64,000 bases of DNA from Patescibacteria group bacterium (GCA_041659765.1 JBAZXR010000001.1:387419-451418); one strand, 5' to 3'. Counted from the first letter of the stretch, positions 30,301 to 60,594 are shown. Notes: generated by a model not told the origin, from the sequence alone. Numbers and translations: made by a program.

Positions 30301-32449
30301 CCGAATCCGTTACCGTAATACGACAATTGTCATGTACGCCGTCGGCCAAGGTGTTAAACGTGACCGTGGTGTTCCCCGCGTTGGCGGATGTATTAGCGCT
30401 TGAACAATCGCCCAAATATGAGATGGTGCCAGACTCAGTAGAGAAGAATGTGTAATCCGGCGTCACGTCAAGAGTTTCAACCGGAACCGGCGTCGTTTCC
30501 GAGAGCACGGGCGCATCAGTATCGACCGTAAAAGCACTGACCGCCAAGAGGTTGCTCTGGTTAGTCGCCGCGTCTGTTAGTCTAATCGTACAGTTGTTAT
30601 GCAAACCCTGTCCTAGGGAATTAAAGGTAATGGTATTAGTACCTACCACCGCATCACTAGTTGAACTTGCACAATCACCTGTATAAGCGATTGTGCCTAC
30701 TTCGTCCGAACTAAATGAATAATCAGGGGTGATGTCTGAAGTAGCTGTGGGCACCGGAGTCACTTCCGCGATAGTCGGCGCCGTCACATCAATAGTGAAG
30801 GCGGAGACAGCTAAAATCGCGCTAATGTTACCAGCCGTATCAGTAACTCGAATCGTGCAATTAGTGTGCGAACCGGCTCCGAGCGTATTAAACGAAATAG
30901 CGTTAGACCCGGCCACCGCGGTTGTAATGCTGCTCGAACAGTCTCCACCGTAGGCAATAGAACCAGCCTCGTTTGAAGTAAACGTATAAGCTGGCGTAGT
31001 GTCATTAGTTGGGCTAGATACCGGAACACTTTCTGTTAGAGTCGGCACCGCAGTATCTATCACCTGACTGGCAGCGTTCAGGAGGGCTCCGTCAGTTGGT
31101 CCGTCGTTAGTTGAGGCTACAAACACGCCAACATCGCCGTTTTGGCTGACTACCAAGTCCCCGCCAGCGTCTGAGTACACCGGTAGCAAAAAGGTTAAAA
31201 GAGAATTGTTGGTTGGCGTACCGGCAATGTCCGTTGTCACGTAAAGCCGCAAGCCTCCAGCTGGAATTGTGTCCGTCAGCGAGCCGAGGCGCCATTCTTG
31301 ATTATTGGTCGAGTTAACCGTCATGGTGCCGAGAACTACATCCTGAGCGTTCTGGAAACCGGCTGTAGTTCCATTCTCCTTCCACACTTTTACGGCAGCA
31401 ATATCCGTGGCGTTAACTGCTCCGCCGTTATTTCTGACGCCCAAGCCCCGCAATTGATCCGCCTGAATATCAAGTACACTATTTGGCGCAGCGCCGCCAG
31501 CCGTACCCTGATCCACCACGATACTCCGGGTTGAATCTATCGGCGACGAACCCGTGTACCCGCAACCCTGCGTACCTGCTCCAGCCCCATCACAGTCAGC
31601 GGCAAAGTTCACCAACGCGTTCCCAGCCACCAGACCGGCCAACGAATACACGTTATCGTCAGCAGTTGAAGAATAGGTTAGTTCGCCCGCAAAGTTTTCA
31701 ATAAAAATATCTTCACCGTTATCATAAGCAGCATCACCGTCACCACCCATGGCCACGGAAGTAGCGAAAGCCCAAGCATTGGTGACTTCAGTAGCGGCGG
31801 CTGTAGCAGAAGTACCTAAAATGTAAGTGCCGTTGTCACTCCCGGCGTTGCCACAGTTACCGTCCGTATCAATCCTAACAGCCGTTGGAGCCGTCAGACT
31901 GTTCGTGCAAACAGCCCGCCCTCCCTGAGCGATGTTATTGCCCATGGCCACCAGAGCCCCGCCAATATCAATTGAGGCGCTGACCGTGCCAATGCCGGTC
32001 GTAGTAGAACCATCGCCGTCCACTAGCGTATCAGCGGCGGAGGTGTAGACACTGTCCGCATCGAGATCACGCACAACCTGTTCGGTTCCCTGGAACCCGC
32101 CCGTACCATCCTCTTTATAACCAACACCGTTCACCGAGCCAAGGGCTGTAAAAATAGACAAAACGTTCCCTTGAAAGAACGTAGCCGAGCCAGCCTTCTT
32201 TACAATATCCGCGGTGTACGCCGTTCCGTTCCACGCGTCAGGTATCCCAACATCGAGCACCAAAATATTCGTCGCGTTGGCCTTGGCTCTGGCCGCCGGG
32301 GCGCCGTTATTTGTGTAATGCGTCAGCAGTGCTGCGACCGCTATTTCCGTTCTGTGAAGTCTTGAGCTTAGAACGAGCGCGATCGTCGAACCGCCAATCA
32401 ACGTCACAGCCAGAAGCATTACTGCACGGGTCTGTTTATGCATAAACAT
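27329..32449 (-). CDS. giant (1706 aa) membrane-anchored cell-surface protein with tandem Ig-like repeats and C-terminal DUF11-like domains
   Basis: N-terminal signal anchor. There are at least 7 copies of a ~95-aa unit (TP.YTF.S.E.G.I.Y.GDCSS.......G.N.ITFNTL..G.H.NCTI.VTD.AGN.S..LAVS.FT.D) alternating with a second ~120-aa unit. The C-terminus has DUF11-like LTKDTVPPT...VTDDTCWP and VSNPGTVHITDVEVTDDYCEP. Confidence 0.6.
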   Translation of the reverse strand: MFMHKQTRAVMLLAVTLIGGSTIALVLSSRLHRTEIAVAALLTHYTNNGAPAARAKANATNILVLDVGIPDAWNGTAYTADIVKKAGSATFFQGNVLSIFTALGSVNGVGYKEDGTGGFQGTEQVVRDLDADSVYTSAADTLVDGDGSTTTGIGTVSASIDIGGALVAMGNNIAQGGRAVCTNSLTAPTAVRIDTDGNCGNAGSDNGTYILGTSATAAATEVTNAWAFATSVAMGGDGDAAYDNGEDIFIENFAGELTYSSTADDNVYSLAGLVAGNALVNFAADCDGAGAGTQGCGYTGSSPIDSTRSIVVDQGTAGGAAPNSVLDIQADQLRGLGVRNNGGAVNATDIAAVKVWKENGTTAGFQNAQDVVLGTMTVNSTNNQEWRLGSLTDTIPAGGLRLYVTTDIAGTPTNNSLLTFLLPVYSDAGGDLVVSQNGDVGVFVASTNDGPTDGALLNAASQVIDTAVPTLTESVPVSSPTNDTTPAYTFTSNEAGSIAYGGDCSSSITTAVAGSNAISFNTLGAGSHTNCTIRVTDTAGNISAILAVSAFTIDVTAPTIAEVTPVPTATSDITPDYSFSSDEVGTIAYTGDCASSTSDAVVGTNTITFNSLGQGLHNNCTIRLTDAATNQSNLLAVSAFTVDTDAPVLSETTPVPVETLDVTPDYTFFSTESGTISYLGDCSSANTSANAGNTTVTFNTLADGVHDNCRITVTDSAGNPSALLVVSTFEVDTTPPSVMNVTSSSPNGEYAPGAAIPITITFNETVYVTNRPRLQLETGDTDEYALYEAGNGTDTLTFDYYVQTGNASLDLDYLATTSLTLNGGTIKDAAADPAVLTLPAPGAAGSLGANKALVIVPTTADTTAPFVNDVFSVTANGAYAAGSVITLLVHWSETVVVTNTPELTLNTAPVAAVATYVSGSGDHELLFRFTVGADMLASDLDYASVSALSLGGGTIMDLAGNNADLVLPSPGGIGSLSATSALLIDSITPTLSETTPVDTFTNDPTPAYTFNSSEAGTIIFGGDCSSGMTSAVSGSNLITFNTLADGLHNNCTVKVRDTAGNENVALAVTPFTVNTSIPLVINVTSSVANGIYGVGAVIPIQVAFDEVVIASGLPRITLETGSINAHAIYVSGSNSSILTFNYTVSSGDSASRLDYLNSSALTYDGGSIEDQAGNSALLTLPIPGATGSLGANKNIEIDTVAPFLFEVTPVYTPTIDTTPSYVFNSTSAGVITYGGGCTSVTVNATAGDNTITFSTLTVGSYNNCTITVSDAADNDSNVLAVSPFSVSSPQQAGFLNVQIASIRLTKDTVPPTLSSVGLPVIYGYKVFNSGNTVLYNIRVTDDTCWPVTFSGGDTDGDGTLGLAEVWKYSCSTVLDKSTFNIATVTAEHSGRQITDTAELYVPVMELGVSIGISLDKSAIPTFLPSTGGQATFTYKVSNPGTVHITDVEVTDDYCEPVSYASGDVDNDGKLDPDEIWVYSCMDMITETTTNKGLVTGIAKGLPVQDDAQVTISIEEQSFDVVPGEGIKPGLEGLKQLGIPMHALLKVKGNQAVYYIGADGLAHPFPRERIFFTWYCDYGDLAIVDQELFSKLGRGADVSFAPGVLMIKRPEDSKVYAIEKGSVLRWIVSEELASALYGKNWNKTIIDVVNFDGYTLGKEISTASDYNSLTARKAVTYPSDGMGIDGYTDSLPGEGLACLDRWRSSAR
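28500..31100. repeat. in-frame tandem coding repeats within the giant surface protein gene
   Basis: Repeated nucleotide and peptide units are visible across ~2.6 kb. Confidence 0.6.
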
Positions 32450-44396: not shown

Positions 44397-45407
44397 ATGG
44401 CCCAGATCCGCTACAAATCCCTGTTGTTCTTTCAGAAAAATCAAGTAATTTTGGAGGTTCCATTGGAAACTGCAATCGTCAATCGTCCTGAGGTTACCGC
44501 CATTACCTCATTCCGCCGGACCGGCGTCCTGATGTTCGAGCTCGAGATGTTCCGTCCCAACGGCGAGAACATCATCGCGCAGACGCACGCGTTTGCCATC
44601 TTGCAGAAATACTTCGAGGCCTCAGCGACCGACCAGCAGGTAGTCACGTTGCCCGTCGCCTTGAAAAAGGCACGCATCGGCCCGCTGGAAATAGATGGCG
44701 GCTATCAGGGCTTTCCAGCGAAGCTCTTGGTTCCTACACAGGCCCTCGCCACTCCAATCGCGTCGGGCTGTCTCCTGCAGAAGGCTCAGGAGACGGTGAA
44801 CCATCCGATCGTGAAGGCTCTGTCTGGAGAGATGCCCTACCAGGGCGAGCGGTACGACATGCACATCACCGGCTCTGACCGGAAAGGTGTGCTCATCGTG
44901 CGCGCCTCCCAAATCAATCTTGGCGACATAGGTGCACAGAGGCCGACGGTGAGAATCTACGCCCTGGACCCAAAGTGGAAGGGCGAAGAACCCTATCTGC
45001 GCGTTACAGGTCCGCCCGGCGATACATTCGCGCGTTCCGGTGCTTGCACGCATTTGCGCGAGCAAGTGAAGCGCGCAGAACGGGTGGCTGCGGAGATCAC
45101 GGAAGCTTTCCGCACCATGACCCCGGAAAATCCACCCCAGTTGCCGGACGACGTGAAGCGCGACCTCGACCTCCTCGGCGAACACGCACTCGACAACTGG
45201 TGCGAGGGAGCCGTCAAAGGGGATGCAAACGCGGTTCGGCAGTTAGCGGGCAAAGCCTGCTCCATCAGAGTGAGAATCCTGATGCGAGAAAAAATCAGCA
45301 ACGGTTCAGACTTCACGTCTGGATTCCCACTGATCAGTCCCGGCATTTGTATCCTCCCTCTCAACATGGCGAAAACGCTACTCGAACTCTGCGACGCCAG
45401 CCGGTAG
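44397..45407 (+). CDS. hypothetical protein (GC-elevated block)
   Basis: 336 aa with no family recognised. GC is visibly higher (~60%) than the baseline. A terminator hairpin GCGCCCACTGTATACAGTGGGCGC+TTTT lies at 45423-45458. Confidence 0.3.
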   Translation: MAQIRYKSLLFFQKNQVILEVPLETAIVNRPEVTAITSFRRTGVLMFELEMFRPNGENIIAQTHAFAILQKYFEASATDQQVVTLPVALKKARIGPLEIDGGYQGFPAKLLVPTQALATPIASGCLLQKAQETVNHPIVKALSGEMPYQGERYDMHITGSDRKGVLIVRASQINLGDIGAQRPTVRIYALDPKWKGEEPYLRVTGPPGDTFARSGACTHLREQVKRAERVAAEITEAFRTMTPENPPQLPDDVKRDLDLLGEHALDNWCEGAVKGDANAVRQLAGKACSIRVRILMREKISNGSDFTSGFPLISPGICILPLNMAKTLLELCDASR

Positions 45408-45542
45408 ACGTCGACCTTCCGCCACGAGCGCCCACTGTATACAGTGGGCGCTTTTACATTCCCTAAAAAATAAGACCCCAGCATTACTGCTGAGGCCGTA
45501 GGGGTGGTCCCGACGCACCGCGAGGCGCGCCGAGATCAGTGG

Positions 45543-46523
45543 CTAGTAACGGATGTTGCGGATACTGACGCGCTGCACGCCTTCGTTCTGCAGAACGATA
45601 CCCGCCTCGGTGTTCATCAGCATCTCCGCTGGCAACAGGTAGCCCGAATGGCCTGGGGTGAGCAGGGAGTCGTGGAAGTCGGTCATGACCTTCTGGAGCC
45701 GGCCTTCGTAGTCGATGGCCAGGCCGGGCACCACTTCGGCGGTCTTGTGGTCGTGGTCGTACACGGTGGCCTGCGCCATCATCATGTCCAGAGCCACTTC
45801 ACCGCACTCGAATCGGACACGGCACCACTCCGGGTACACATGTTCCTTCAGACGACGGGTGCCGCGGAAACGGAAGGTGATCCCGTCATCGCGCCGGCCC
45901 ACCGCGTCGTAGTGATCGAACCCGTCCTGGAGTTTCCAGGCCTCGAAACTTTGAATGCCGAACAGGGCATTCATCAGATCGACCTCGTGGTTGATGTGGT
46001 CGAGCAGGAGGCTGCGGGTGTGCTTCCAGGCGTTCGACGGCGCGTGGTAGGAGAAATCGAAGTCGAAGCTGACCACCTTGCCAAACCGCTCTAGGAACCC
46101 GGGCTTGTCCGGCTGCGAACCCAAGCCGTCTTGCAACCAGCAGATCGGTCTATCGAACCGGCGCGGGTGGCAGGACGTGAGGATAAGCCGCTTCTTCTCA
46201 GCCAGGTCGAACGCGGCTTCCAGCTGAGCGAGATCCTGACCAGGGACCATGAGCGGCTTCTCGCAGAAGACGTGCTTCCCCGCCACGAGCGCGCTCTCGA
46301 TCTGCCCCAGATGGTACTCATCCGGAGAACAGATCATCACGGCGACGATCTCCTTGTCGGCCAGGAGCTCTGCGAGCGAGGCGTATTTCTTGTTGCTCTC
46401 GATCATCTCCATGGCCTTGGGATCCGGGTCCCAAACGCCGTGAGTGGTGAAGTCATCCAGGTAGTTCTTGGCATGATGTTCCGCGTGCGTACCGCAACCG
46501 ATAATTCCCATCAAACGTGACAT
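45543..46523 (-). CDS. Gfo/Idh/MocA-family NAD(P)-dependent oxidoreductase
   Basis: GIIGCGTHAEHH Rossmann N-terminus and the EKPL motif (FCEKPLMVPG). Confidence 0.75.
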   Translation of the reverse strand: MSRLMGIIGCGTHAEHHAKNYLDDFTTHGVWDPDPKAMEMIESNKKYASLAELLADKEIVAVMICSPDEYHLGQIESALVAGKHVFCEKPLMVPGQDLAQLEAAFDLAEKKRLILTSCHPRRFDRPICWLQDGLGSQPDKPGFLERFGKVVSFDFDFSYHAPSNAWKHTRSLLLDHINHEVDLMNALFGIQSFEAWKLQDGFDHYDAVGRRDDGITFRFRGTRRLKEHVYPEWCRVRFECGEVALDMMMAQATVYDHDHKTAEVVPGLAIDYEGRLQKVMTDFHDSLLTPGHSGYLLPAEMLMNTEAGIVLQNEGVQRVSIRNIRY

Positions 46524-46719
46524 TGTTGTAGCCCTCCGTAAAATTAATGCGGCCTAATGTTAGCAAAAAAATACAAAAAAGTCAAGCAAAAAAACAAAGA
46601 ACCGACACCATTGCTGATGTCAGTTCCATGTGGCTCCCTAGATTATCTTTTTACCGAACTGGGGAGTATCTACGCCGAAGTGAAGATCGGCATGGATAAG
46701 ATGCGAGCAAATTGTGAAT

Positions 46720-46962
46720 TTATCCGATTGCCATCCCAACAATTTGCAAAATAAAACCTAAAGCAAATAGTAAGAATGCAAAGATTCCCAATCGGCGATC
46801 TTTTAGATGTTTTTTCTGCGTATAGTTGCCGTCTACATCCATTTGCGTAATAAAGTCGTCATCGACATTCCTCTTGGTGATTAGGAACGGATATATAGCC
46901 ACAATTGATGCAACCGTATTAAAGATCAACCCCGAGATAATTACACCGTTACTTAATGTCAT
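46720..46962 (-). CDS. small two-TM membrane protein, third gene of the AT-rich island operon
   Basis: 80 aa, lying 5 nt downstream of the preceding gene. Confidence 0.35.
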   Translation of the reverse strand: MTLSNGVIISGLIFNTVASIVAIYPFLITKRNVDDDFITQMDVDGNYTQKKHLKDRRLGIFAFLLFALGFILQIVGMAIG

Positions 46963-46967
46963 ATCTG

Positions 46968-47915
46968 CTAAAATAAACGTTCTAATCTTTCGGGTATCAA
47001 TACTTCCTCAAGATCCCCACCATCATTCCGTTTGTAGAAAAACAATTTTGCCAAATTCAAATTTTGATCCTGCAATTTTACTGCATCTTCCTGTTCAAGG
47101 CGATCTCCAACAACGATCACTACCAATCTCTTTATACCAAATATTGCAAGCTTCTCTTTGAATCTAGCGAGAATAAACCTTAACGCTTCATAATTTTTTG
47201 AAGTGAAATATCGAATTTCGATTGCGGTGGGTTTACCAAGTTTCTTAGAATAGAGAAGACCGTCTAGAATAAGATCCTTTTTTCCTTCCATTGTCAGTTT
47301 AACTTGGGATTTATATTTTTCACCATATCTCTCAATAAGCCTCGTCTGAAGAATCGTCTCAATTCTCGAAGCTTTTTCATACCGATCAACATTCTTTTGA
47401 TCTAGAGTGGCAGCGTCTTGTTTGTTGCTTAGTGCATTAGCGGATGTTTTTGAAGAAACCTCAACTTTCTTAGTTTTTGGCTCTGTCTCGATCATTTCCT
47501 GAATTGTTTTTTTCTTTGCTTCAGCATCAGTGGCACTTGATTCGACTACGGCGGCATTTATTCCATCTGATCCCACGTGAGTCATTCTATTTTTAATGAA
47601 GTGATCTATGGCATCGTGATGTCGCCATAGGATGATGAGAGCAATGAAAAGTATTGAAGCAGACCAAGAGGTTAAAATTATTTTGAGATATTCGTCGATA
47701 ACAAATAAAATTGTCTCCACACCAAATTGAACTTTGAATAAAGCGACTATTAATGAGATCGTAAACGCCAAAAGCAAACCATAAGGAAGCGCTACCTTAC
47801 AAAGAAGGTAAAATACCTTCGCAATAATCGTTCCACAGCTTTTTAAAAAGCCGAGGGTGTAATACCAAATCTTTCTAAAAATATTTTTCGTAAAAAGCAA
47901 GAGTCGTTTGACCAT
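46968..47915 (-). CDS. membrane-anchored protein (3-4 N-terminal TM helices plus ~170-aa C-terminal soluble domain), partner of the GHKL ATPase
   Basis: Its start codon lies 1 nt after the stop of the upstream 660-aa gene. The C-terminal domain has a D-x12-E-I-R segment (LILDGLLYSKKLGKPTAIEIRYF) that could be a degenerate PD-(D/E)xK-like core. Confidence 0.45.
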   Translation of the reverse strand: MVKRLLLFTKNIFRKIWYYTLGFLKSCGTIIAKVFYLLCKVALPYGLLLAFTISLIVALFKVQFGVETILFVIDEYLKIILTSWSASILFIALIILWRHHDAIDHFIKNRMTHVGSDGINAAVVESSATDAEAKKKTIQEMIETEPKTKKVEVSSKTSANALSNKQDAATLDQKNVDRYEKASRIETILQTRLIERYGEKYKSQVKLTMEGKKDLILDGLLYSKKLGKPTAIEIRYFTSKNYEALRFILARFKEKLAIFGIKRLVVIVVGDRLEQEDAVKLQDQNLNLAKLFFYKRNDGGDLEEVLIPERLERLF

Positions 47916-47916
47916 A

Positions 47917-49899
47917 TCAAACTAAATTAACACTTGCTTCAGTGACGATTTCTTCAGGAGAAGCGAAGTCCTTGGCTATCAAATTTTGATCGATTTGTAA
48001 TTTGTCTTGGATAAACTGATGTCTGAGTTTTGCGGCGGTCAAAACCTCGCTCCATGTTCGAACGTAAATTTTATAGTTTCCTTTATTGAAAACTAAGCCC
48101 TTATTTTTCTCGCCATGATTTTTATTATTTTCAATCTCATCTTCTATATAACTATCCATGCGGTTGCCCACAAGAATAAATTCCCAATGCATATTTGAGG
48201 CATTGAAATCAGCAACCGACAAAATTACACTCATGTATTTTTTGACCTGAGATAACTCTTCCTCACCCAAGATTACAGATGGTCTCTTTAATTCAACGAC
48301 AATATTTTCAATTGTACTTATTGTTTTATTTTGCCTGCACAAGAAAAGATCCATTTCCTTATTTTTGTCCCTATGCTTAATAGAAATCGTTTCTATCTCC
48401 CCACCAAGATGCTCATGATAATTAGCGAGTGCTTTTTCAAATTTTTGTTCGGTGGATGCTAATAGATGGTATTGCTCTCCAAAAATCCAATAATTTAGAT
48501 CAAGAAATTTTTGGAGATGATCACGTTCGTTTGCATTAAAAGAAGTTTTGAAAACTAAATCATTCAACTGATCAAGAGCAATGAAACGCTCTTTGATCAA
48601 ACGCGTGGCATGAATAATATTTGATAGATGCGTCACCTTAAGTAACTCGCACAATTCATCAATATCTTCTGAATCCAATTCAAGTACAGCCTTGAGAATC
48701 TCAAATATCTTTTCTTTCTCTCCCGATTCCAACAATACATTTAATAGTCCAACCAACGTCTTCTTCTCCTCGATGGAAGAAGTGGAGAAAATCTTTGGTT
48801 GAACTTGATACAGTCCTTTGATTACTTCTTCAAGCTCATTCTTTTTAACAAGATCCCATTGGTCTGTACCAAATTTCGGAATAATCCCTTTGCTCTCATA
48901 TTCCTCAATCAACTGTTTCGCGTAGTTAGCCAAAAATGGCTTACGTTTTTTTCTTAAAAACTGAGTTAATTCTTTTTCTAAAAACTTAAATTCTGCGTCA
49001 GATTTAGAGTGACCGAAAAGAGTGCGATCTTCTTCCCCAGAACCGCCCTCGGCATTAAACTCATCGAAATAATCGCTCTTAATGTAGACGCTATGATAAA
49101 AGCTATCGCCTTTGTTATTTAATTTTGTTGTCTCTTTCCAGATCTCATCATCTTTTGAATTAACAAGGTAATAGCGGGAATACTCGTCGTGAAGTTGCCT
49201 ACTCCAACGAACAAAATTAATTTCAAACTCTGTATTTGATGCAGGATAAATAAATTTTGTTGAAGCTTGCTCTCCAATTATTGAAGCGTAGTCGAGTGGC
49301 TTGCCGTTGATAAGAACGGCGAATCCTCGTTTTTTGTTTAATTCCAAAAACCAGCCGAATTCAGCTTTTAAATATGCTTCTACCTTATCCTGAAACATCG
49401 TAAACGTGAGGGAGTTTACAGAGTCGAAGGTAACGGTAGTCCCAGTATTTTTTTCAGCAGACTTCTTAGGGGTCGAAGAGTTGGTCTCGTAGTGGTTTAA
49501 CTTTTGAGATTCGATGGTGATGTCGTATTCAAATACCTCGTCTTTGTTTTTAAATCTTGTAGTCCATACAGCCCTCTCTGAAAAAGTAAAAAAGGTAAGG
49601 CGACCAATCCCGTTTCTTCCGTGCGTTAAGGACTTGTTCCTGGAAGGACTTTTAGCCATTTTTTCGGATTGAAAAAACGGTCTAAATTTTTGATCAAGAA
49701 GGCTTTTATCGATACCGCTTCCATTGTCGGAAATACTCAGGCTTCGAATCCCACCAAGACCCTCCACGTCCACATCTATTCTGACATCCGTTGCGCCAGC
49801 ATCGAAGCCATTCCAAATAAATTCAGCAAAAGCTTCTTCGGCGGTGTATTTACGTAAGATTTGCTTTATCCCTCTTTCGTTCACTTCAATGATTGCCAT
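47917..49899 (-). CDS. GHKL-superfamily (MutL/MORC-like HATPase_c) ATPase with C-terminal PD-(D/E)xK-like region
   Basis: Bergerat-fold motifs are present in order: N-box EFIWNGFDAGA (ExxxNxxDA), G1 ISDNGSGI (DxGxG), G2 GRNGIGRL (GxxGxG) and G3 NTGTTVTF. The C-terminal MDLFL...IVVELKRP fits a D...ExK nuclease core. The region is AT-rich. Confidence 0.6.
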   Translation of the reverse strand: MAIIEVNERGIKQILRKYTAEEAFAEFIWNGFDAGATDVRIDVDVEGLGGIRSLSISDNGSGIDKSLLDQKFRPFFQSEKMAKSPSRNKSLTHGRNGIGRLTFFTFSERAVWTTRFKNKDEVFEYDITIESQKLNHYETNSSTPKKSAEKNTGTTVTFDSVNSLTFTMFQDKVEAYLKAEFGWFLELNKKRGFAVLINGKPLDYASIIGEQASTKFIYPASNTEFEINFVRWSRQLHDEYSRYYLVNSKDDEIWKETTKLNNKGDSFYHSVYIKSDYFDEFNAEGGSGEEDRTLFGHSKSDAEFKFLEKELTQFLRKKRKPFLANYAKQLIEEYESKGIIPKFGTDQWDLVKKNELEEVIKGLYQVQPKIFSTSSIEEKKTLVGLLNVLLESGEKEKIFEILKAVLELDSEDIDELCELLKVTHLSNIIHATRLIKERFIALDQLNDLVFKTSFNANERDHLQKFLDLNYWIFGEQYHLLASTEQKFEKALANYHEHLGGEIETISIKHRDKNKEMDLFLCRQNKTISTIENIVVELKRPSVILGEEELSQVKKYMSVILSVADFNASNMHWEFILVGNRMDSYIEDEIENNKNHGEKNKGLVFNKGNYKIYVRTWSEVLTAAKLRHQFIQDKLQIDQNLIAKDFASPEEIVTEASVNLV

Positions 49900-50038
49900 A
49901 AGCTTATACCGATTCTATCAGTTTAAGCAGACTTAGCAACCGACTCTCGTAGTACAAAAACGTATTGAATTTATGGCTTAATTAATGCCTCCATTCCGTC
50001 AACAAGTTTCACTTCAAATTTGCTCAATCCAAGGAGCA

Positions 50039-50358
50039 ATGGATCCCGTAGCGTACGCCAGCGAGGTTCAGAGGCTTGAGGGGGAGCTTCAGGAAGTCGA
50101 AAAGAATCTCATAGCCACAAAGGAAACAGCCGAAGAAATGCTTAACACCATTTTAGAGTTTTCCGAACTCGTAAAAATGGCTAGCATCACATATAAATAC
50201 GCGAATCCTCGTGAACGTCACAATCTTCTCACGCAAGCGTTTACCGAACTCAGATTAGCGAACGATGACTTTACATACGATCCAAAAGAGGGCTTTTTAA
50301 AGCTTTTTCAGCGACACGATAAAAAGAAAACACACCTTGATGAACAAGATGTGGTTTC
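50039..50358 (+). CDS. hypothetical ORF that runs without a stop into the tRNA-Asn gene (possible island-border remnant)
   Basis: AAGGAG RBS 8 nt upstream of ATG 50039. The frame stays open through the tRNA, with a stop only at ~50420, so the true C-terminus is uncertain. Confidence 0.25.
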
Positions 50359-50361
50359 TGG

Positions 50362-50433
50362 CTCGGGGGGTGGGGCTCGAACCCACGACCCAAGGATTAA
50401 CAGTCCTTTGCTCTGCCACTGAGCTACCCCCGA
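50362..50433 (-). tRNA. tRNA-Asn (anticodon GTT), CCA encoded (to 50359)
   Basis: Minus-strand sequence TCGGGGGTAGCTCAGTGGCAGAGCAAAGGACTGTTAATCCTTGGGTCGTGGGTTCGAGCCCCACCCCCCGAGCCA. It has a 7-bp acceptor stem, GCTC/GAGC D-stem, anticodon loop CTGTTAA and T-loop TTCGAGC. Confidence 0.85.
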
Positions 50434-52647: not shown

Positions 52648-53853
52648 CTAAAAAGTAACGCGAATACCAGACAGCGTGACGCCGGACTTCACCACGGTAA
52701 ATGGAGTTTTCAAGCCGTGCTGCGGGGCGTGTTCGATGACGGATGATTCAAGAAACAGAGCATTCCGTTCATCTGTATCCTCGGCGAGCTTCGACGCAAT
52801 GTTCACGGGCGAGCCGGCGATTTGTTCTTTGCCCTGTCCCATGTCGAACAGCAAGACCTCGCCCGACACAACCGCAATATTACAGGTCAGTTCGGCCTCC
52901 TGTGCAGTGGCGTGAAGCGCGATTGATAAATCGACAGCTTCACTAGAGCTCTCGAGCGTAATAATCATGAGCGAGCCGTTCGCGCTGACCAAGTTTGCGC
53001 TGTATTTACGCAGTACCTCATTCATGAGCGAATTCGTAGCTACGCCTTGGGCTAGCTGGTCCAAGAGTAAAGGTTCGTGTCCGTGGAACACCCGAACAAG
53101 CACCACGGTTCGAGCAATCAATCGTTCTTTCTCAAGAGCAGCGATCGCCTCTGGATTAGTTGCATCGAGTTTACGGAGGGCGTCGGCGAATCCTGAATCA
53201 AATGGGGCCGGGAACACCACATCGTCGCCCTTGGCTACCGGCGAAATATCCGCCACGTTTTCTAATACAAAAAATTCCGCGCGCTCTTTGTCAACCTTAA
53301 ATGTATCGCCAATTGCTTTCTTTACTTCGGCCGATATCATGACCTCCCCCGCCTTGGATTCTTCTTCTGTTACCTGCTCGACGGCATCGGCGTCTGCTCC
53401 GTATAATCCACCGCCAATCTCGTAAGAAAGTCCGACGTGAATACCGAGTCCGACTTTGACGGTGCAGCGTGCCGCTTCTTTCTGGAGGGCGAGCATCTGG
53501 CCCACCACCGTGGCCGCTGGAATACTTTCTGGATAGAACATCTGCGTGTTGTCCGCAATCCAAATACCAATCGGCTTCCCGCCAATGGCCTTGCCGTAAG
53601 CATGAATCAGTTCTTTCGGCTCGCTCACTAGCTTCATCACTTCGATCAGCGATTTATTCATCGAAAGTTTTGAAAGACCGGCTGAATCTGAAGAAACAAT
53701 TATCCCTTCTCTTTTGTATGGAGCGAGCAACTTCTCGTGGGTTTCTGGAGTGCCGTCACTTTTGACCCACTCCTCAATTAAATCAACGGGAATCTCGCCT
53801 GCAATGTCTTGCGACAGATCAGCGAAAACTGACTGAAAATGCTTATTTTGCAT
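52648..53853 (-). CDS. tandem class III nucleotidyl-cyclase-homology (CHD)-like domain protein
   Basis: The first half has IIVSSDSAGLSKL, GGKPIGIWIADNTQMF and KVGLGIHVGLSYEIGGGLYG. The second half has VVLVRVFHG and CNIAVVSGEVLLFDMGQGKEQIAGSPVNIASKLAE, where GxxVNxAxRLE is the CHD hallmark. The metal-binding Asp residues are not conserved in the second half. Confidence 0.4.
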   Translation of the reverse strand: MQNKHFQSVFADLSQDIAGEIPVDLIEEWVKSDGTPETHEKLLAPYKREGIIVSSDSAGLSKLSMNKSLIEVMKLVSEPKELIHAYGKAIGGKPIGIWIADNTQMFYPESIPAATVVGQMLALQKEAARCTVKVGLGIHVGLSYEIGGGLYGADADAVEQVTEEESKAGEVMISAEVKKAIGDTFKVDKERAEFFVLENVADISPVAKGDDVVFPAPFDSGFADALRKLDATNPEAIAALEKERLIARTVVLVRVFHGHEPLLLDQLAQGVATNSLMNEVLRKYSANLVSANGSLMIITLESSSEAVDLSIALHATAQEAELTCNIAVVSGEVLLFDMGQGKEQIAGSPVNIASKLAEDTDERNALFLESSVIEHAPQHGLKTPFTVVKSGVTLSGIRVTF

Positions 53854-53936
53854 ACGGCCATCAGATTAGCATAAAAAAAGAGCGGGCGCCCATGGACCGT
53901 GAAGTCCAAGGGCACCCGCGTGAGAGAGCTGACTGC

Positions 53937-56513
53937 CTACTTGACGCTGCCGCCGTAGCGCTTGCCGGTACCGTCCGCGACATAGGTGATGTCACCCGTG
54001 TTCTGGCTGACGGTGTACCCGCCGGTCGGACCGGTGGCGCTCAGGATGTGGCCGCCGTGCACGTTGCTGGCACACCAGTCGGCGTCGTTGTTCAGCCAGC
54101 ACTGGATGGACAACGTGTCGTTGCGCATGGTGGTCAGCTGCACGGTCACCACGGACCCGCTGCGGATGGCCGTGGAAACCACCGCGCCCGTATTGACGTT
54201 CTTCACCTCGAAGTTGTTGAGGGTCATGCCCGTCGCCGCGGCGTCGAGCGTGAACGTCCAGGTGTTCGTGGTCCGGCCAGTCGAGCTCGTACCGTCCTGC
54301 CCGTTGCAGTCCTGATCGTGGCCGTCGACCGAGAGGTCGAGGGCGCCAGGGTACGTGTCGCTCCGGGTGTCATCGCAGTCACCCGAGGCCGCCACGTAGC
54401 CGGCCGGCTGGGAAGCCTGCGCGACCGAGACGAGCGGGTTGCCGAACTTGTCGCTGTCACCGTCCTTGTACCAGGTGTTCGTGGACGGCAGCGAACAGAC
54501 CAAGTCCCCGCCCGAGCAATCGTCGTCCACGGCATTGCCGCAGACCTCCACCGCTCCCGGCTTCACGGCGGCATTGCCGTCGTTGCAGTCGGTCTTGTCC
54601 GTCACGTAGCCCACGGGCTGGGAAGCCTGCAGGAGGGTGACGAGCGGGTTGCCGAACTTGTCAGCGTCCTTGTCTTCATACCAGGAGACCGCGCAGACCG
54701 CGTCACCGCCCGAGCAGTCCTCATCCAGGTTGTTGCCACAGGTGTCCGTGGCCCCGGGGAACTGGAGCGGGTTGCTGTCGTTGCAGTCATCCACGAGCAC
54801 GGTGCTCGCCGCCTCGTTGGCGTCCAGACAGTCCAGATCCGTACTGATGATCGCGGTGGACTGGTTGGCCACGGACCGGTGCTTGTCGTTGTCGCCGTCC
54901 AGGTAGCACGACTCGAGCGAGTCGCAGTTCTGGTCCACGCCGTCACCGGCCTGTTCGATCGCACCGGGGTGGATCATGGCCCTGATGTCGTCGCAGTCGG
55001 TGGCGGGGTCCGTGGCCTTCGCCTCGAACGGATCCGCGCAGCTGACGTTGGCGCTGCCGATCGGCAGGTTCAGGCTCGTGCGGAACGTGTCGTCATCGAG
55101 GTCAATGTAGCAGACCTCCGTCCCCGTGCAGTCCTCGTCGATCTCGTTGCCGATGATCTCAGACGCCAGCGGATGGACCGTGGCCTTCGTGTCGTCGCAG
55201 TCGGTCGAGAGCGCCACGTAGCCCGCGGGGGCCACATTGACGTTCACGGTGGTCGGCTGCGACAGGTTTCCGTACCCATCCACGTCCGCGTCCTTGTAGA
55301 ACGTGAACGTGCTGGTCGAGCACACGTTGCCTTCGTCGATTCCGCTGACGCAGTTGTTGTCCTGCGCGTCGCAGATCTCCACCGCCCCAGGCTTCACGGC
55401 GGAATTGCCGTCGTTGCAGTCCGTGGCACTGGCCACGTACCCAGCCGGCTGGCCAACCTGCACGGTGAACACGAGCGCGTTCCCGAACAGATCGCCGTCC
55501 TTGTCCTGGTACCAGGTGGTGCCATTCACGCACACGTTCCCTTCGTCGATTCCGCTCACGCAGTTGTTGTCCTGCGCGTCGCACACCTCGGTCGCGCCGG
55601 GCTTCACGGCGGAATTGCCGTCGTTGCAGTCCGTCGAGTTGTTCACGTAGCCCGCGGGGGCAACGTTCACATTGACCGTGGTCGGCGACGAGAGGTTCCC
55701 GAAGCCGTCCGTGTCCACGTCCTTCCAGAACGTGTAGGTGTTGCTCGAGGGGCCGTCCTTGCCGTCGCAGTTCTGGTCCACGCCATCGACCGTGGGGTCG
55801 GGGGCGTTCGGATTCACCGCCGCATTCGCGTCGTTGCAATCCGTGTTGTTGGCCACGAACCCGACAGCCGGAACGGCGCTCGTACCGCCGGCGGAATTGC
55901 CGAAGGTGTCGCCGTCCCCGTCCTTGGAGTACACCACGCTGCCCTTGTCGGAGGTCAGCGTGTTGCAGTCATCGTCGAGGCCGTTGTTCAGCACCTCCGC
56001 GCGGTCCACGTTGATGGCCGCGTTCGCGTCATCACACTCGCCGGCGGGCTCGGAGAAGTAGGCTTCCCCGCTGCTCTCGCAGTCACCGTCGGGCGAGGTG
56101 AAGAACGTCTCCAGCCGGTGACCGTCGTTGTCACCGTCCGTCCAGCACTTGACGGAGTTCGCGTTCGGCTCGTCCACCTGCAAGTTGCAGTTGTCGTCGT
56201 AGCCGTTCTGCTGCTCCTGCGCGCTCGGGAAGATGGCGCTATCCGCGTCATCGCAGTCGCCGATCCGCTTGGACTTGCCAGCGGGCACGACCGTGACGCA
56301 CGTCGGAGTCTCCATGGCCCCCCAGCCGTCACCGTCTTCATCGTCCGTCACCGGCGATTCCGTAAGGGTACAGTACGCGTGGCGGGCGGCGTCGTTCGGA
56401 TCCGCCTCGTGCACCGTGGCCCCGCTGTCAAGAGCGGTGTCCTCGGTCAGGTCCTGGTTGTCACACGCGCCGATGGAAAGGAAGCCCATGAGCACGAACA
56501 GTCGATTCTTCAT
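53937..56513 (-). CDS. secreted Cys/Asp-rich repeat protein (MopE-like putative metal-binding repeats), in a GC-rich island
   Basis: Signal/lipobox MKNRLFVLMGFLSIGAC. There are at least 12 copies of a ~45-aa unit (GYV...TDCNDGNSAVKPGA.E.CD.QDNNC.SGIDEG). It is 858 aa, GC is ~65-70% by eye, and a large antisense shadow ORF exists. Confidence 0.55.
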   Translation of the reverse strand: MKNRLFVLMGFLSIGACDNQDLTEDTALDSGATVHEADPNDAARHAYCTLTESPVTDDEDGDGWGAMETPTCVTVVPAGKSKRIGDCDDADSAIFPSAQEQQNGYDDNCNLQVDEPNANSVKCWTDGDNDGHRLETFFTSPDGDCESSGEAYFSEPAGECDDANAAINVDRAEVLNNGLDDDCNTLTSDKGSVVYSKDGDGDTFGNSAGGTSAVPAVGFVANNTDCNDANAAVNPNAPDPTVDGVDQNCDGKDGPSSNTYTFWKDVDTDGFGNLSSPTTVNVNVAPAGYVNNSTDCNDGNSAVKPGATEVCDAQDNNCVSGIDEGNVCVNGTTWYQDKDGDLFGNALVFTVQVGQPAGYVASATDCNDGNSAVKPGAVEICDAQDNNCVSGIDEGNVCSTSTFTFYKDADVDGYGNLSQPTTVNVNVAPAGYVALSTDCDDTKATVHPLASEIIGNEIDEDCTGTEVCYIDLDDDTFRTSLNLPIGSANVSCADPFEAKATDPATDCDDIRAMIHPGAIEQAGDGVDQNCDSLESCYLDGDNDKHRSVANQSTAIISTDLDCLDANEAASTVLVDDCNDSNPLQFPGATDTCGNNLDEDCSGGDAVCAVSWYEDKDADKFGNPLVTLLQASQPVGYVTDKTDCNDGNAAVKPGAVEVCGNAVDDDCSGGDLVCSLPSTNTWYKDGDSDKFGNPLVSVAQASQPAGYVAASGDCDDTRSDTYPGALDLSVDGHDQDCNGQDGTSSTGRTTNTWTFTLDAAATGMTLNNFEVKNVNTGAVVSTAIRSGSVVTVQLTTMRNDTLSIQCWLNNDADWCASNVHGGHILSATGPTGGYTVSQNTGDITYVADGTGKRYGGSVK

Positions 56514-56708
56514 CTCTACCTCCTGGCTGGTTAGCCGTTACACTGTCTTCTCGAACTCACACACTAATGAAAGAAGTCCCCAAATGCGTTCGATGGAACA
56601 TTTGAGGAACGGGTGACCTTATAGAATTTACTGACTATTGTCAAAAGATTCGGCTTCGATCAGCGAAAAATGCACACAAGGCGTTGATTAGTGGCTATTA
56701 TTAGCAAA

Positions 56709-56745
56709 AAAAAGACGGCCCATACCCTAAGGCTGGTGCCGTTTT
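56709..56745 (-). terminator. intrinsic terminator of the small Cys-rich paralog
   Basis: On the minus strand: ACGGCACCAGCCTTAGGGTATGGGCCGT followed by CTTTTTTTTGC. Confidence 0.45.
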
Positions 56746-56764
56746 GTTCGATGAGAAGCTGATA

Positions 56765-57190
56765 TCAACGATTCGCGTCCTGACCGTCGCAATCCTGATC
56801 GTGGCCGTCGACCGAGAGGTCAGGGGCTCCAGGATACGTATCGCTTCGAGCGTCATCGCAATCACCGGAGACCACGACGAAACCCGGAGGGGCCACGTTC
56901 GTCTTCGTCATCCGCCACCGCGCTGCACTCCCGTACCTATCGCTGTCACCGTCGCGGTACCAGGTAAACGTACCCGGGCCGCACATGTCATCCTCGTCTA
57001 CGAGTCCGTCGCAGTCGTTGTCGATCCCATCACATGACTCGACGATAGTCTTGCAAACAACCGGCTGATCACGCGTGGTGACGGACTGCTTGAATTGCCC
57101 AATTCGGATCCCGATCGCGGTAAGGAGGAGGCACAGCGAGAGCACAAGGACGATTGCCCCACACCGACCACGCGATTCGAACATATTCAT
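56765..57190 (-). CDS. small secreted Cys/Asp-rich repeat protein, paralog of the C-terminal repeats of the 858-aa protein
   Basis: Signal peptide; CDGIDNDCDGLVDEDD and GDCDDARSDTYPGAPDLSVDGHDQDCDGQD are near-identical to units in the 858-aa protein. Confidence 0.5.
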   Translation of the reverse strand: MNMFESRGRCGAIVLVLSLCLLLTAIGIRIGQFKQSVTTRDQPVVCKTIVESCDGIDNDCDGLVDEDDMCGPGTFTWYRDGDSDRYGSAARWRMTKTNVAPPGFVVVSGDCDDARSDTYPGAPDLSVDGHDQDCDGQDANR

Positions 57191-57303
57191 GAAACCCCCA
57201 AAATGGTCGTCTTCTGCCCGGAATGGGTGGATGACGAACGGGAAAGGTTAGCAAAATTATGTGAAATTGTCAACCAAAATGGTGCTAAAGCTGGCTAAAA
57301 CTT

Positions 57304-57335
57304 TGACAATTTACGGTTTGCCCTATATACTTCCG
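57304..57335 (+). promoter_or_regulatory. sigma70 promoter upstream of typA (TTGACA-N17-TATATA/TATACT)
   Basis: TTGACAATTTACGGTTTGCCCTATATACT. Confidence 0.5.
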
Positions 57336-57342
57336 CCCACTT

Positions 57343-59154: not shown

Positions 59155-59250
59155 ATAAAAAGACCCTCCGCACATTGACGGAGGGCTCTTTTTTTGCTAG
59201 CCTTACATGTCTCCTTATGGAGATTCCTTCACAATCACCCAGGAGTTTTC

Positions 59251-60594
59251 ATGGAAAAGTCAGCTAGGAATATCATAACCTTTAGAGGTGAATTCCCTGA
59301 TTCTCTGCTCGTTCCCGCCAAGATGATCGCCGACGCGTTAGCTCCGTACGACGCCCTCACTGATGCGTTTGAACAGCCGGGTGACACAATCGCCCTGTTC
59401 GAACTACTTGATCTAGAAGGTTGTTTCACCGAAGAGCTCATCCGCCACATCCCCGCTGGCGCCAGTCTGCTCAACGAATACTCCGTCAGCCAAATCAAGG
59501 TCTGTAGGTCGCTGCGCGAACACCGCCGGTATCTCCAGCGACTCAACAACTCGCTGAAACGCATCATGCGCGAGCTTAAGGCAAACGGCTTTCCGATCAC
59601 GTGCATACTGCTGAACGAGATGATCGCGACCATGGATCATCAGGATCTCGGGACACAAATTCAGTCCATGGGACTAATGGCCACCAAAACAGCTCGGCAT
59701 GAGAGCAGCGTGGCTTACAAGATCCCACCCGGCGACGTTATTCGGTCAAACCGCGACTTCGCCTGGTACGAAATCGCCGAGGCAGCCAGCCGAACGCCTC
59801 AAAACAAGTTCAAGACCATCATCGGAATGAAAACCGTACGGGACATGATGAAAACGGTCGACCTCCTGTTTCTGAAACGCAAGGCCGTCTCTATGAAGTA
59901 TCGGTTCGCTGTTGGACTCAACGTTCCACATCTCACTTTCTGCTTCATGGCGAGCAATCACTTGCTCAGCGTCTGCAAGCTCGCAGCCATAGACATCAAG
60001 ACCAAAACAATCGTGGCCGACGCGGAAGTTGCCAGGGACAACGGCGAAATCACCTTCGCCGGATGCAATTTTCTGTCTGTCGCCACAGCCTTTCAAGTGT
60101 TCAACGCCAAGCGCGGGTATATGTTTTTGCGCGACATCGTGTCAGCGAACCTATACGCGTTACTCACTGAGGGCCAGATCCAGGAACGCGAATACATTAC
60201 AGAGACCGAAACGGGACCAAACGTGCCTGCAGATGTGCCTATCGCCGTAACCGGCGTCCTCGAAAACGCACAGCAGGCAGAACAGACGGTCGGAACCTCA
60301 ACCGCGGATGTGACTGAGCGGTTGTCCGAGGAAACACCACCAGAGGTCTGTGTTCCCTCGCCCACGGTGGTGGGCAAAGGACGGTTCGGCTACCGCAACA
60401 TCCTCGCCACGCTGTTCCGGTTCGGAGTGACTATAGAAAAAGGGGGCCGACACGTGAAACTAAGGTTCGGGGATAAAACCACCCCATTCCTGAACCGGCA
60501 TCAGAAAGAAGATCCAGTTCACAACAGACTAAACCTGTTCCGTGCTCTGGAGGCTCTCGGCATTCCGAAAGACCAGTTCGTCAGCTCACTGTAA
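59251..60594 (+). CDS. hypothetical protein with C-terminal HicA/YcfA-like domain
   Basis: The likely start is MEKSARN. The C-terminal EKGGRHVKLRFGDKTTPFLNRHQKEDPVHNRLNLFRALEALGI resembles the HicA toxin fold (G.H..L.....T..VP.H....L..G.L..IL..LGI). Confidence 0.35.
   Translation: MEKSARNIITFRGEFPDSLLVPAKMIADALAPYDALTDAFEQPGDTIALFELLDLEGCFTEELIRHIPAGASLLNEYSVSQIKVCRSLREHRRYLQRLNNSLKRIMRELKANGFPITCILLNEMIATMDHQDLGTQIQSMGLMATKTARHESSVAYKIPPGDVIRSNRDFAWYEIAEAASRTPQNKFKTIIGMKTVRDMMKTVDLLFLKRKAVSMKYRFAVGLNVPHLTFCFMASNHLLSVCKLAAIDIKTKTIVADAEVARDNGEITFAGCNFLSVATAFQVFNAKRGYMFLRDIVSANLYALLTEGQIQEREYITETETGPNVPADVPIAVTGVLENAQQAEQTVGTSTADVTERLSEETPPEVCVPSPTVVGKGRFGYRNILATLFRFGVTIEKGGRHVKLRFGDKTTPFLNRHQKEDPVHNRLNLFRALEALGIPKDQFVSSL

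Follow-up and report, generated by a model that had tools for sequence, protein, structure and literature searches.

The locus described here lies in a stretch of 64,000 nt from a Patescibacteria genome (GCA_041659765.1 JBAZXR010000001.1:387419-451418), in the following called the window, from whose first letter all coordinates are counted. The mean GC content of the window is about 0.51, and its host is assigned by sequence to Candidatus Uhrbacteria with a GC content of about 51%; the TypA of the window is 94-96% identical to that of Ca. Uhrbacteria and Patescibacteria metagenome-assembled genomes (MAGs). The lineage belongs to the Patescibacteria or Candidate Phyla Radiation (CPR), a group known for episymbiotic lifestyles. 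Two neighbouring minus-strand genes encode proteins of 858 and 141 amino acids (aa) with cysteine- and aspartate-rich repeats of the MopE type (Table 1). The larger gene exhibits a strong, purely synonymous GC excess that ends at its start and stop codons, and comparison with a related assembly supports the conclusion that this excess has been maintained in place during vertical descent.

Gene content and protein architecture

The two MopE genes are predicted to form separate transcription units, each with its own terminator, situated between a weakly cyclase-like gene and typA, and the 858-aa gene is read as a monocistronic unit with a strong Shine-Dalgarno (SD) sequence and a terminator. Hairpin terminators had already been proposed by the initial annotation, and RNA folding confirmed a hairpin with a U-run after both genes; the promoter/terminator scanner failed to report them on the minus strand because their loops exceed 8 nt. 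The putative promoter upstream of the 858-aa gene is a weak candidate, since it was read by eye and went unreported by the consensus scanner, which requires a spacer of 16-18 nt. On the minus strand, the 858-aa gene is followed by the gene of a 401-aa protein (c401) and by greA, and on the other side of the MopE genes lie typA, a 466-aa open reading frame (ORF) without family, rpoD and dnaG. An Rfam scan of the window found tRNA only, and exact-sequence look-ups with the 858-aa protein and TypA gave no match.

Table 1. Features at the MopE locus (CDS, coding sequence; GC1 and GC3, GC content at first and third codon positions; dG, folding free energy)
Feature	Position	Strand	Evidence and remarks
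858-aa MopE-repeat lipoprotein CDS	53937-56513 (stop codon 53937-53939)	-	ORF list; PF11617 score; codon table; ortholog P0001 with 64% identity over full length
Signal peptide and lipobox (MKNRLFVLMGFLSIGA, then C17)	56463-56513	-	read from translation
Repeat region, aa 86-742	54288-56258	-	~70-aa (~210-nt) modules with 11 PF11617 motifs of the DC[DN]D type; direct-repeat families and module parse
C-terminal non-repeat domain of ~115 aa (WTFTLD...QCWL..DWCASN.HGGHI.SATGP...RYGGSVK)	53940-54287	-	predicted beta-sandwich; GC3 0.93
Intrinsic-terminator-like hairpin and U-run, 3' of 858-aa gene	53873-53919	-	RNA fold, dG -33.9 kcal/mol, z -6.2
Upstream region of 858-aa gene	56519-56644	-	SD AGGAGG 56519-56524; TTGACA 56639-56644, 15-nt spacer, TATAAG 56618-56623; read by eye
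141-aa paralog CDS	56765-57190	-	N-terminal hydrophobic helix; 2 PF11617 motifs; GC3 0.68
Unit of 141-aa gene common to last module of 858-aa gene (54288-54473)	56774-56962	-	80-83% DNA identity
Terminator-like hairpin and U-run, 3' of 141-aa gene	56706-56742	-	RNA fold, dG -15.5 kcal/mol, z -2.7
880-aa antisense shadow ORF, not a gene	53892-56534	+	GC1 0.894 mirrors sense GC3; no Pfam family

Concerning the repeats, their proposed affiliation to the MopE type was confirmed by profile searches: PF11617 (Cu-binding_MopE, "putative metal-binding motif") matches the 858-aa protein in 10 stretches (E 1.4e-72, 239.9 bits at a cut-off of 27) and the 141-aa protein in two (E 3.2e-12, 46.9 bits); NCBIfam holds no family for either protein. 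A protein search with the 858-aa protein returned thousands of homologs, with many top family matches from Myxococcota, and the best match outside the family is 39-41% identical. The description as a repeat lipoprotein holds for the 858 aa and the lipobox, but not for the units, of which there are 10-11 of about 70 aa and not at least 12 of about 45 aa: direct-repeat families in the gene are spaced 198-225 nt, and a DNA repeat period of about 210 nt therefore implies a unit of about 70 aa. Each module consists of W-Y-x-D-x-D-x-D-G-x-G, a short variable stretch ending in P-x-G-Y-V, and D-C-[ND]-D-x6-P-G-A-x-E-x-C-D-x-x-D-N-[ND]-C. Across 40 aligned modules of the 858-aa protein and its homologs, positions D6, D8, D10, G13, D34, C35, D37, P44, G45, D54 and C57 are invariant. 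Pairwise DNA identity between modules within the gene ranges from 55 to 91%, and Tandem Repeats Finder reported no tandem array at the locus because the units are too diverged. An AlphaFold2 model of the module is of high confidence (predicted local distance difference test score, pLDDT, 90.7), is loop-rich and has no neighbour at all in the PDB.

The N-terminus of the 858-aa protein, MKNRLFVLMGFLSIGAC, contains a lipobox and agrees with the PROSITE PS51257-type pattern for lipoprotein signals, with K2 and R4, an uncharged VLMGFL stretch and then S-I-G-A-C17. A lipobox is also present in the corresponding proteins of the related loci L001 (SLSAC), L002 (FMSAC), L005 (LMGSC) and L099 (LLAAC) and in the relatives P0121, P0122, P0124 and P0127. 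Neither lgt nor lspA is found among the scanned ORFs of the 64-kb window. The 858-aa protein is likely a lipid-anchored surface protein, as predicted from this signal.

The C-terminal domain, or head, is rare, with about seven clusters detected by an exhaustive HMMER search of 1.84 billion cluster representatives. Six of the seven begin with a lipobox signal peptide, and the remaining one, P0123 (161 aa), possesses a hydrophobic N-terminal helix only. The search method matters for this domain: with a 118-aa C-terminal query, a word-indexed search gave no match, although P0001, retrieved by the full-length query, contains the domain at 66% identity, whereas exhaustive HMMER gave E 4.5e-43. A metagenome scan with an alignment of the C-terminal domain yielded 62 pattern matches, none of which was confirmed. 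The protein evolves fast, the MopE lipoproteins of the window and L001 being 64-67% identical versus 94-96% for TypA, RpoD and DnaG.

PF11617 repeat proteins, annotated as "MopE-related protein" in Myxococcota, Bacteroidota and others, are secreted or surface proteins with many tandem copies of the same 30-aa motif, DC[ND]D...PGA.E.CDG.DNDC, and the 858-aa protein agrees with them in profile score, multiple copies and the Cys/Asp/Pro-Gly skeleton. Despite this agreement, there are several differences: the former carry type IX secretion system (T9SS) or other sorting domains, whereas the 858-aa protein has a lipoprotein anchor; many of its modules lack the Cys before QP of the consensus and have a different fourth Cys; it ends in the rare head; its host is a small-genome CPR bacterium; and the extreme, maintained GC3 distinguishes it from the Bacteroidota members. 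Judged by its architecture, the protein adds a new variant, distinguished by its rare head, to a repeat family that is known but has not been characterised functionally. In the literature searched, neither arrays of PF11617 repeats nor proteins of this kind in Patescibacteria were the subject of a functional study.

The invariant D-x-D-x-D-G and the second acidic cluster of the modules resemble calcium-type motifs, to which class DxDxDG belongs, and calcium binding is what this resemblance would suggest. Calcium-rigidified repetitive adhesins (the giant RTX-type SiiE, the ice-binding MpIBP) and DxDxDG/thrombospondin-type-3 repeats are comparable as to a possible way of working only, with no homology demonstrated. 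In contrast to the RTX-type adhesins, the 858-aa protein also has predicted disulfides, carries an N-terminal lipid anchor instead of type I secretion system (T1SS) retention, and is much smaller.

The 141-aa protein, with a hydrophobic N-terminal helix and no canonical lipobox, is by prediction a short, membrane-tethered paralog. Its positional counterpart in L001 has the same length of 141 aa and an identity of only 40%. Near-identical copies of two units had been assigned to it, of which one stands: in the 30-aa unit pair concerned, 27 of 30 residues are identical, at 80-83% DNA identity over about 109 nt, and at the protein level the final module of the 858-aa protein is 81% identical to the C-terminal unit of the 141-aa one. 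Each of these two units is closer to the other than to its own L001 counterpart; an exchange of one unit between the 858- and 141-aa genes, specific to this lineage, is supported. Further conversions concern window modules 5 and 6 (91% DNA identity, versus 81-84% to their orthologs) and L001 modules 6 and 15 (93%). Among the 13 synonymous differences in the exchanged unit, ten have G or C in the 858-aa gene and A or T in the 141-aa gene, with none in the reverse direction (binomial p 0.002). This asymmetry of G/C (S) and A/T (W) states argues that the 858-aa gene was resident throughout and did not decay.

Codon composition and persistence

The high GC content reported for the two ORFs was reproduced, with 0.65 over the 858-aa CDS and 0.59 over the 141-aa CDS versus the window mean. 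The continuous 3.3-kb GC-rich island that had been described is not found, however: the spacers at 56514-56764 and 57191-57342 have a GC content of 0.44, and the 141-aa gene reaches a GC3 of only 0.68. In the 858-aa gene, GC1 (0.59) and GC2 (second codon positions, 0.47) are inconspicuous, and GC3 is 0.898, compared with a GC3 of 0.43-0.66 in typical genes of the window. Only 12 of its 858 codons end in A, with AAA used in 0 of 24 and CAA in 0 of 25 cases. GC3 is raised evenly over the whole gene (signal and N-terminal part 0.82, repeats 0.90, non-repeat head 0.93). The excess is purely synonymous and ends at the start and stop codons. Spacers at the compared loci have a GC content of 0.42-0.59, including those between two GC3-rich genes in L170, L167 and L171.

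At four-fold degenerate sites, the 858-aa gene has a T frequency of 0.08 and a G frequency of 0.46, whereas in the genes of TypA and RpoD, where A is also avoided, T retains a frequency of 0.27-0.28. The genes of enolase (GC3 0.61) and AhpC (0.55) are at background. Over these four genes no obvious expression gradient is seen, and ordinary translational selection is less likely. A 1706-aa protein (27329-32449, minus strand; DUF7507, E-set-like, presumably at the surface) is encoded at a GC3 of 0.49; the codon regime is therefore not general to large surface-protein genes here.

Concerning other members of the family, the MopE genes of a Flavobacteriales contig and a Chitinophagaceae contig have a host-like GC3 of 0.33-0.43, which speaks against a GC bias intrinsic to the repeat. 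One of the side observations concerns the Chitinophagaceae MAG (L086, 1-12982), in which seven PF11617 genes follow one another, several of them overlapping or fragmented and the last one T9SS-sorted, all at host-like GC3. Relatives with the same head and 0-3 MopE modules, in contrast, have a GC3 of 0.90-0.98; P0121 has 0.94, with 0.93 in its non-repeat N-domain, and P0127, with zero MopE modules, has 0.98. Repeat-driven conversion as the sole cause was rejected, since non-repeat domains and repeat-free relatives are equally biased. Downstream of three of the same-head relatives, a conserved partner lipoprotein of about 175 aa is encoded at a GC3 of 0.86-0.91. It is Gly/Asn-rich in L170 (1-3577; JGI 3300064746, the sample of L001), where a partial 405-aa Pro/Ala-rich protein (GC3 0.89), P0121 and the partner lipoprotein (0.91) adjoin one another, and it recurs downstream of P0122 and P0124. 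GC3-rich clusters of this kind are also seen in L167 and L171. The spacers within this trio of GC3-rich genes have a GC content of 0.52-0.54, and nine genes at GC3 0.43-0.73 (eight of nine at or below 0.64) follow it, the one directly after the trio encoding a 179-aa lipoprotein-like protein (N-terminal ...GWGC) at a host-like GC3 of 0.56.

The PE_PGRS genes of Mycobacterium tuberculosis are likewise repetitive, with surface-exposed, Ca-motif products, a GC content above that of the genome and frequent conversion. Their GC excess is largely due to Gly-Ala codon content, in a genome already at 65% GC, whereas the excess described here is purely synonymous (GC3 0.90 versus about 0.56), reaches the non-repeat domains and occurs in a genome of 51% GC.

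MopE genes beside typA are also found in three related assemblies. The order in L001 is dnaG, rpoD, typA, MopE (141 aa), MopE (271 aa), MopE (867 aa), msrA and c401, with a MopE GC3 of 0.93 and neighbours at 0.53-0.63; the 867-aa protein is 64% identical to the 858-aa protein over the full length. L005 (TypA 96% identical) has c401, MopE (661 aa) and typA (MopE GC3 0.86, neighbours 0.42-0.54), and L099 (TypA 94%) has greA, c401, MopE (865 aa) and typA (0.86, neighbours 0.42-0.64). A short contig without typA, L002, carries an 864-aa protein of the same class beside msrA (GC3 0.88, neighbour 0.52). The MopE lipoproteins of L005 and L099 have a head other than that of the window, common to both loci; this second-class head of about 150 aa (CPTGQ...; genes at L005 7814-9799 and L099 7099-9696) is 34% identical between the two. 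Since different heads occur at one typA site among genomes with TypA identities of 94-96%, head domains have been exchanged there, and the typA-adjacent genes in the three assemblies indicate a locus that is old in the clade and variable in head and paralog content. The same junctions in independent assemblies speak against a chimeric assembly. The gene msrA (PF01625) directly follows the large MopE gene in L001 (12683-13222) and L002 (3224-3652), but does not do so in the window.

The age of the gene was assessed by comparing the window with L001 at four-fold sites under conserved residues, with the genes of TypA, RpoD, DnaG and c401 as the housekeeping set. Among sites with S in both genomes, G/C interchanges have a frequency of 0.268 in the MopE gene and 0.225 in the housekeeping set (Fisher p 0.24); as this GC-neutral divergence equals that of the housekeeping genes, the MopE gene is of the same age as its flanks. 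The probability of finding A/T in one genome opposite a G/C site of the other is, however, 0.074 in the MopE gene versus 0.267 in the housekeeping set (p 5e-20), i.e., GC-to-AT differences are 3.6-fold fewer. Simulations with the two-state S/W process of the housekeeping genes, even when starting from an ancestral GC3 of 1.0, predict a GC3 of 0.83 +/- 0.02 and 74 +/- 7 S/W-discordant sites, whereas a GC3 of 0.90 in both genomes and 35 discordant sites are observed, values reached in 0 of 20,000 simulations. Maintenance of GC3 in place during vertical descent is supported by these results, while an ancient foreign origin of the gene may still lie further back.

Alternative explanations and proposed role

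The composition had been taken as a sign of recent transfer from a high-GC donor, i.e., of a fresh, unameliorated genomic island from a group such as Myxococcota with duplication after acquisition. A GC3 of 0.90 with near-absent A-ending codons does resemble genomes of about 68-70% GC, many top family matches are from Myxococcota, and other compositionally odd genes occur in the window beside tRNA-Asn. This origin is nevertheless highly improbable, and the claim is not supported: the gene is syntenic in the related assemblies (L001, L005, L099) at similarly raised GC3, G/C interchanges equal those of the flanks while GC-to-AT differences are too few, neutral amelioration is rejected in all 20,000 simulations, the excess stops at the CDS ends next to host-like spacers, neither an integrase nor a tRNA nor direct repeats mark the borders (the single tRNA lies at 50359-50433, and the repeat search gave intragenic families only), and the best match outside the family is distant. 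Repeated replacement of the resident copy, via conserved flanks, by alleles from a GC-rich pool, with the 141-, 271- and 179-aa paralogs as ameliorated leftovers, is unlikely. It would account for the different head classes of L005 and L099 at a TypA identity of 94-96%, for L006 without the gene, and for the adjacency of GC-rich and host-like paralogs (858 aa beside 141 aa; in L170, 175 aa at 0.91 beside 179 aa at 0.56), and high-GC Uhrbacteria with MopE genes exist (L084). The agreement of G/C divergence between window and L001 with that of housekeeping genes would, however, need a coincidence; in the exchanged unit, the ten S-to-W changes in the 141-aa gene and none in the 858-aa gene point to a resident, undecayed large gene; GC3 values of 0.94-0.98 exceed those of the known high-GC Uhrbacteria MopE genes (0.82-0.87); and the spacers between adjacent GC-rich genes are host-like. 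Similarly unlikely, and slightly more so, is a rise of GC3 through GC-biased gene conversion (gBGC), be it among repeats and paralogs or, at a surface-protein locus undergoing diversification, among strains. Such a process has been proposed for bacteria (PMC4450053). Lineage-specific conversions are indeed seen here (window modules 5/6, L001 modules 6/15, the 858/141 exchange), and the bias concerns G/C versus A/T, not codon identity, with an unaffected G/C interchange rate. Yet GC3 is equally high in the non-repeat head, the signal peptide and repeat-free family members, the paralog that served as exchange partner stays host-like (141 aa, GC3 0.68), the boundaries at the CDS ends are sharp with host-like spacers, and repeat-rich Bacteroidota MopE genes have no GC3 excess. 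The effect of gBGC in bacteria reportedly amounts to only a few GC3 points, compared with about 30 points here.

A role as a copper-binding or copper-scavenging surface protein, working like MopE of Methylococcus capsulatus, is very unlikely. The Pfam family is named Cu-binding_MopE, and immobilised metal affinity chromatography suggests some involvement of residues 1-24 of MopE* in the weak binding of Cu(II) (PMC3423442). Both proteins are surface-associated or secreted, and one motif near the N-terminus of MopE* (PDB 2VOV/2VOW/2VOX) aligns with one 858-aa unit; this is the sole PDB match (2VOV_A residues 15-57, E 2e-4), so that membership in the MopE copper proteins is not indicated. MopE has a single motif versus 10-11 in the 858-aa protein, the rest of MopE*, with its copper site and folded domain, finds no counterpart there, and in the modules the invariant residues are Asp, Cys, Gly and Pro, whereas His (9 residues) and Met (6) occur seldom and without conservation. 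In MopE*, the first 46 residues are invisible in the crystal, the Cu(I) site is formed by His132, His203 and kynurenine outside the motif, and Ca2+ stabilises the protein in solution (PMC3423442). The Pfam name is therefore no evidence of copper binding, a structural comparison with the motif is not possible, and the "Cu-binding" in the name of PF11617 should not be passed on as a functional annotation; of the suggested surface metal or contact protein, the surface or contact role is likely, whereas the metal part goes back to the Pfam name. There is next to no probability that the plus-strand ORF is expressed instead of, or in addition to, the minus-strand one, although its 880 codons run uninterrupted over the whole locus and equivalent antisense ORFs occur in L005 and L099. 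The minus frame has the PF11617 match (E 1e-72), lipobox, SD sequence, terminator and thousands of homologs, whereas the plus frame encodes Arg/Val/Ala/Gly low-complexity sequence without a Pfam family, its GC1 equalling the sense GC3; the choice of the minus-strand ORF as the gene thus stands. The plus frame is open because the sense gene has no TTA, CTA and TCA codons, an absence that belongs to a general depletion of codons ending in A. As this depletion extends to all A-ending codons and not just these three, selection for an open antisense frame was rejected.

The explanation we favour, and consider reasonably probable, is a resident locus encoding an adhesin with a stalk stabilised by calcium and disulfides and a beta-sandwich head, the GC3 of which is actively maintained, most likely by selection on the coding sequence or mRNA. 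The lipoprotein signal peptide would lead to lipid anchoring of the large protein at the cell surface, calcium and disulfides would stiffen about 11 modules into a stalk outside the cell, and the stalk would hold the C-terminal head off the membrane, where it would bind a partner surface (host cell, glycan or matrix). A rare head domain and head swapping between close relatives fit a protein that recognises a host or a surface. Selection on the coding sequence or mRNA would hold GC3 high by distinguishing G/C from A/T, irrespective of codon identity; it is favoured because gBGC fails on the non-repeat domains, the host-like paralogs and the sharp CDS boundaries. The 141-aa gene would represent a short membrane-anchored paralog that has swapped one unit with the 858-aa gene.

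Several points weigh against this explanation. The different head in L005 and L099, at an identity of about 33-35%, demonstrates that turnover at the locus does occur, and L006 (TypA 95%) lacks a MopE gene at the typA site. The persistence test is based on one close pair, the window and L001, with pairwise counts and no outgroup, whose own GC3 of about 0.88 would bias a polarisation of S/W changes, and misaligned paralogous modules could add noise to it. Alleles from a GC-rich pool that replaced the resident copy again and again would look like maintenance, provided that the divergence of the donor matched that of the host. The adhesin and calcium roles of the 858-aa protein are inferred from architecture and motif resemblance. 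Finally, an expression-linked bias may play some part, the genes compared being those of enolase, AhpC, TypA and RpoD.

If selection causes the bias, it constitutes an unusually strong, gene-class-specific synonymous constraint in a tiny-genome bacterium. The synonymous sites of the 858-aa gene appear to be at an equilibrium of their own, about 30 GC3 points above the genome and bounded by the start and stop codons. Horizontal transfer is the routine reading of compositional outliers, whereas in this case a textbook-looking "GC island" seems to be a resident gene, and a candidate contact or adhesion protein of an uncultivated lineage of the episymbiont type. More tentatively, a dedicated codon-usage class is conceivable, in which a few surface lipoprotein genes are kept at a GC3 of at least 0.9 by a CDS-only selection indifferent to G versus C; with the same reserve, its members might be the MopE lipoproteins beside typA with either head class, the relatives with the window's head class (class A) and the partner lipoproteins of about 175 aa. 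If true, these mRNAs would be subject, in a minimal-genome symbiont, to a specific kind of control or protection not recognised so far, candidates being a gate on translation set by a tRNA or its modification, protection from an endoribonuclease that targets A/U, and mRNA stability that depends on structure. Literature searches found no account of a persistent, CDS-delimited codon regime common to a small set of lipoprotein genes.

Neighbouring genes and a second compositional anomaly

The gene of c401 (52648-53853, minus strand) has no family in Pfam or NCBIfam, and its match to class III cyclases (mycobacterial Ma1120, E 0.006) is only marginal. It adjoins the MopE gene in L005 and L099 and is one gene apart in L001; as it stays beside or near the MopE gene, the two may be functionally linked. 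The 466-aa ORF between typA and rpoD (59194-60594, plus strand) has no Pfam family and is missing from the syntenic L001 locus, where typA abuts rpoD; a 49%-identical counterpart follows typA in L004.

A compositional mosaic extends over 44397-50433 and adjoins tRNA-Asn (50359-50433), the only tRNA of the window. It comprises two GC-rich genes, at 44397-45407 (GC3 0.70, no Pfam match) and 45543-46523 (a GFO_IDH_MocA oxidoreductase, GC3 0.81), and an AT-rich block at 46968-49899 (GC about 0.36, GC3 0.34-0.37) encoding a protein with HATPase_c_3 and HSDR_N_2 that looks defence-like. Unlike the MopE locus, this mosaic resembles a genuine integration hot spot.

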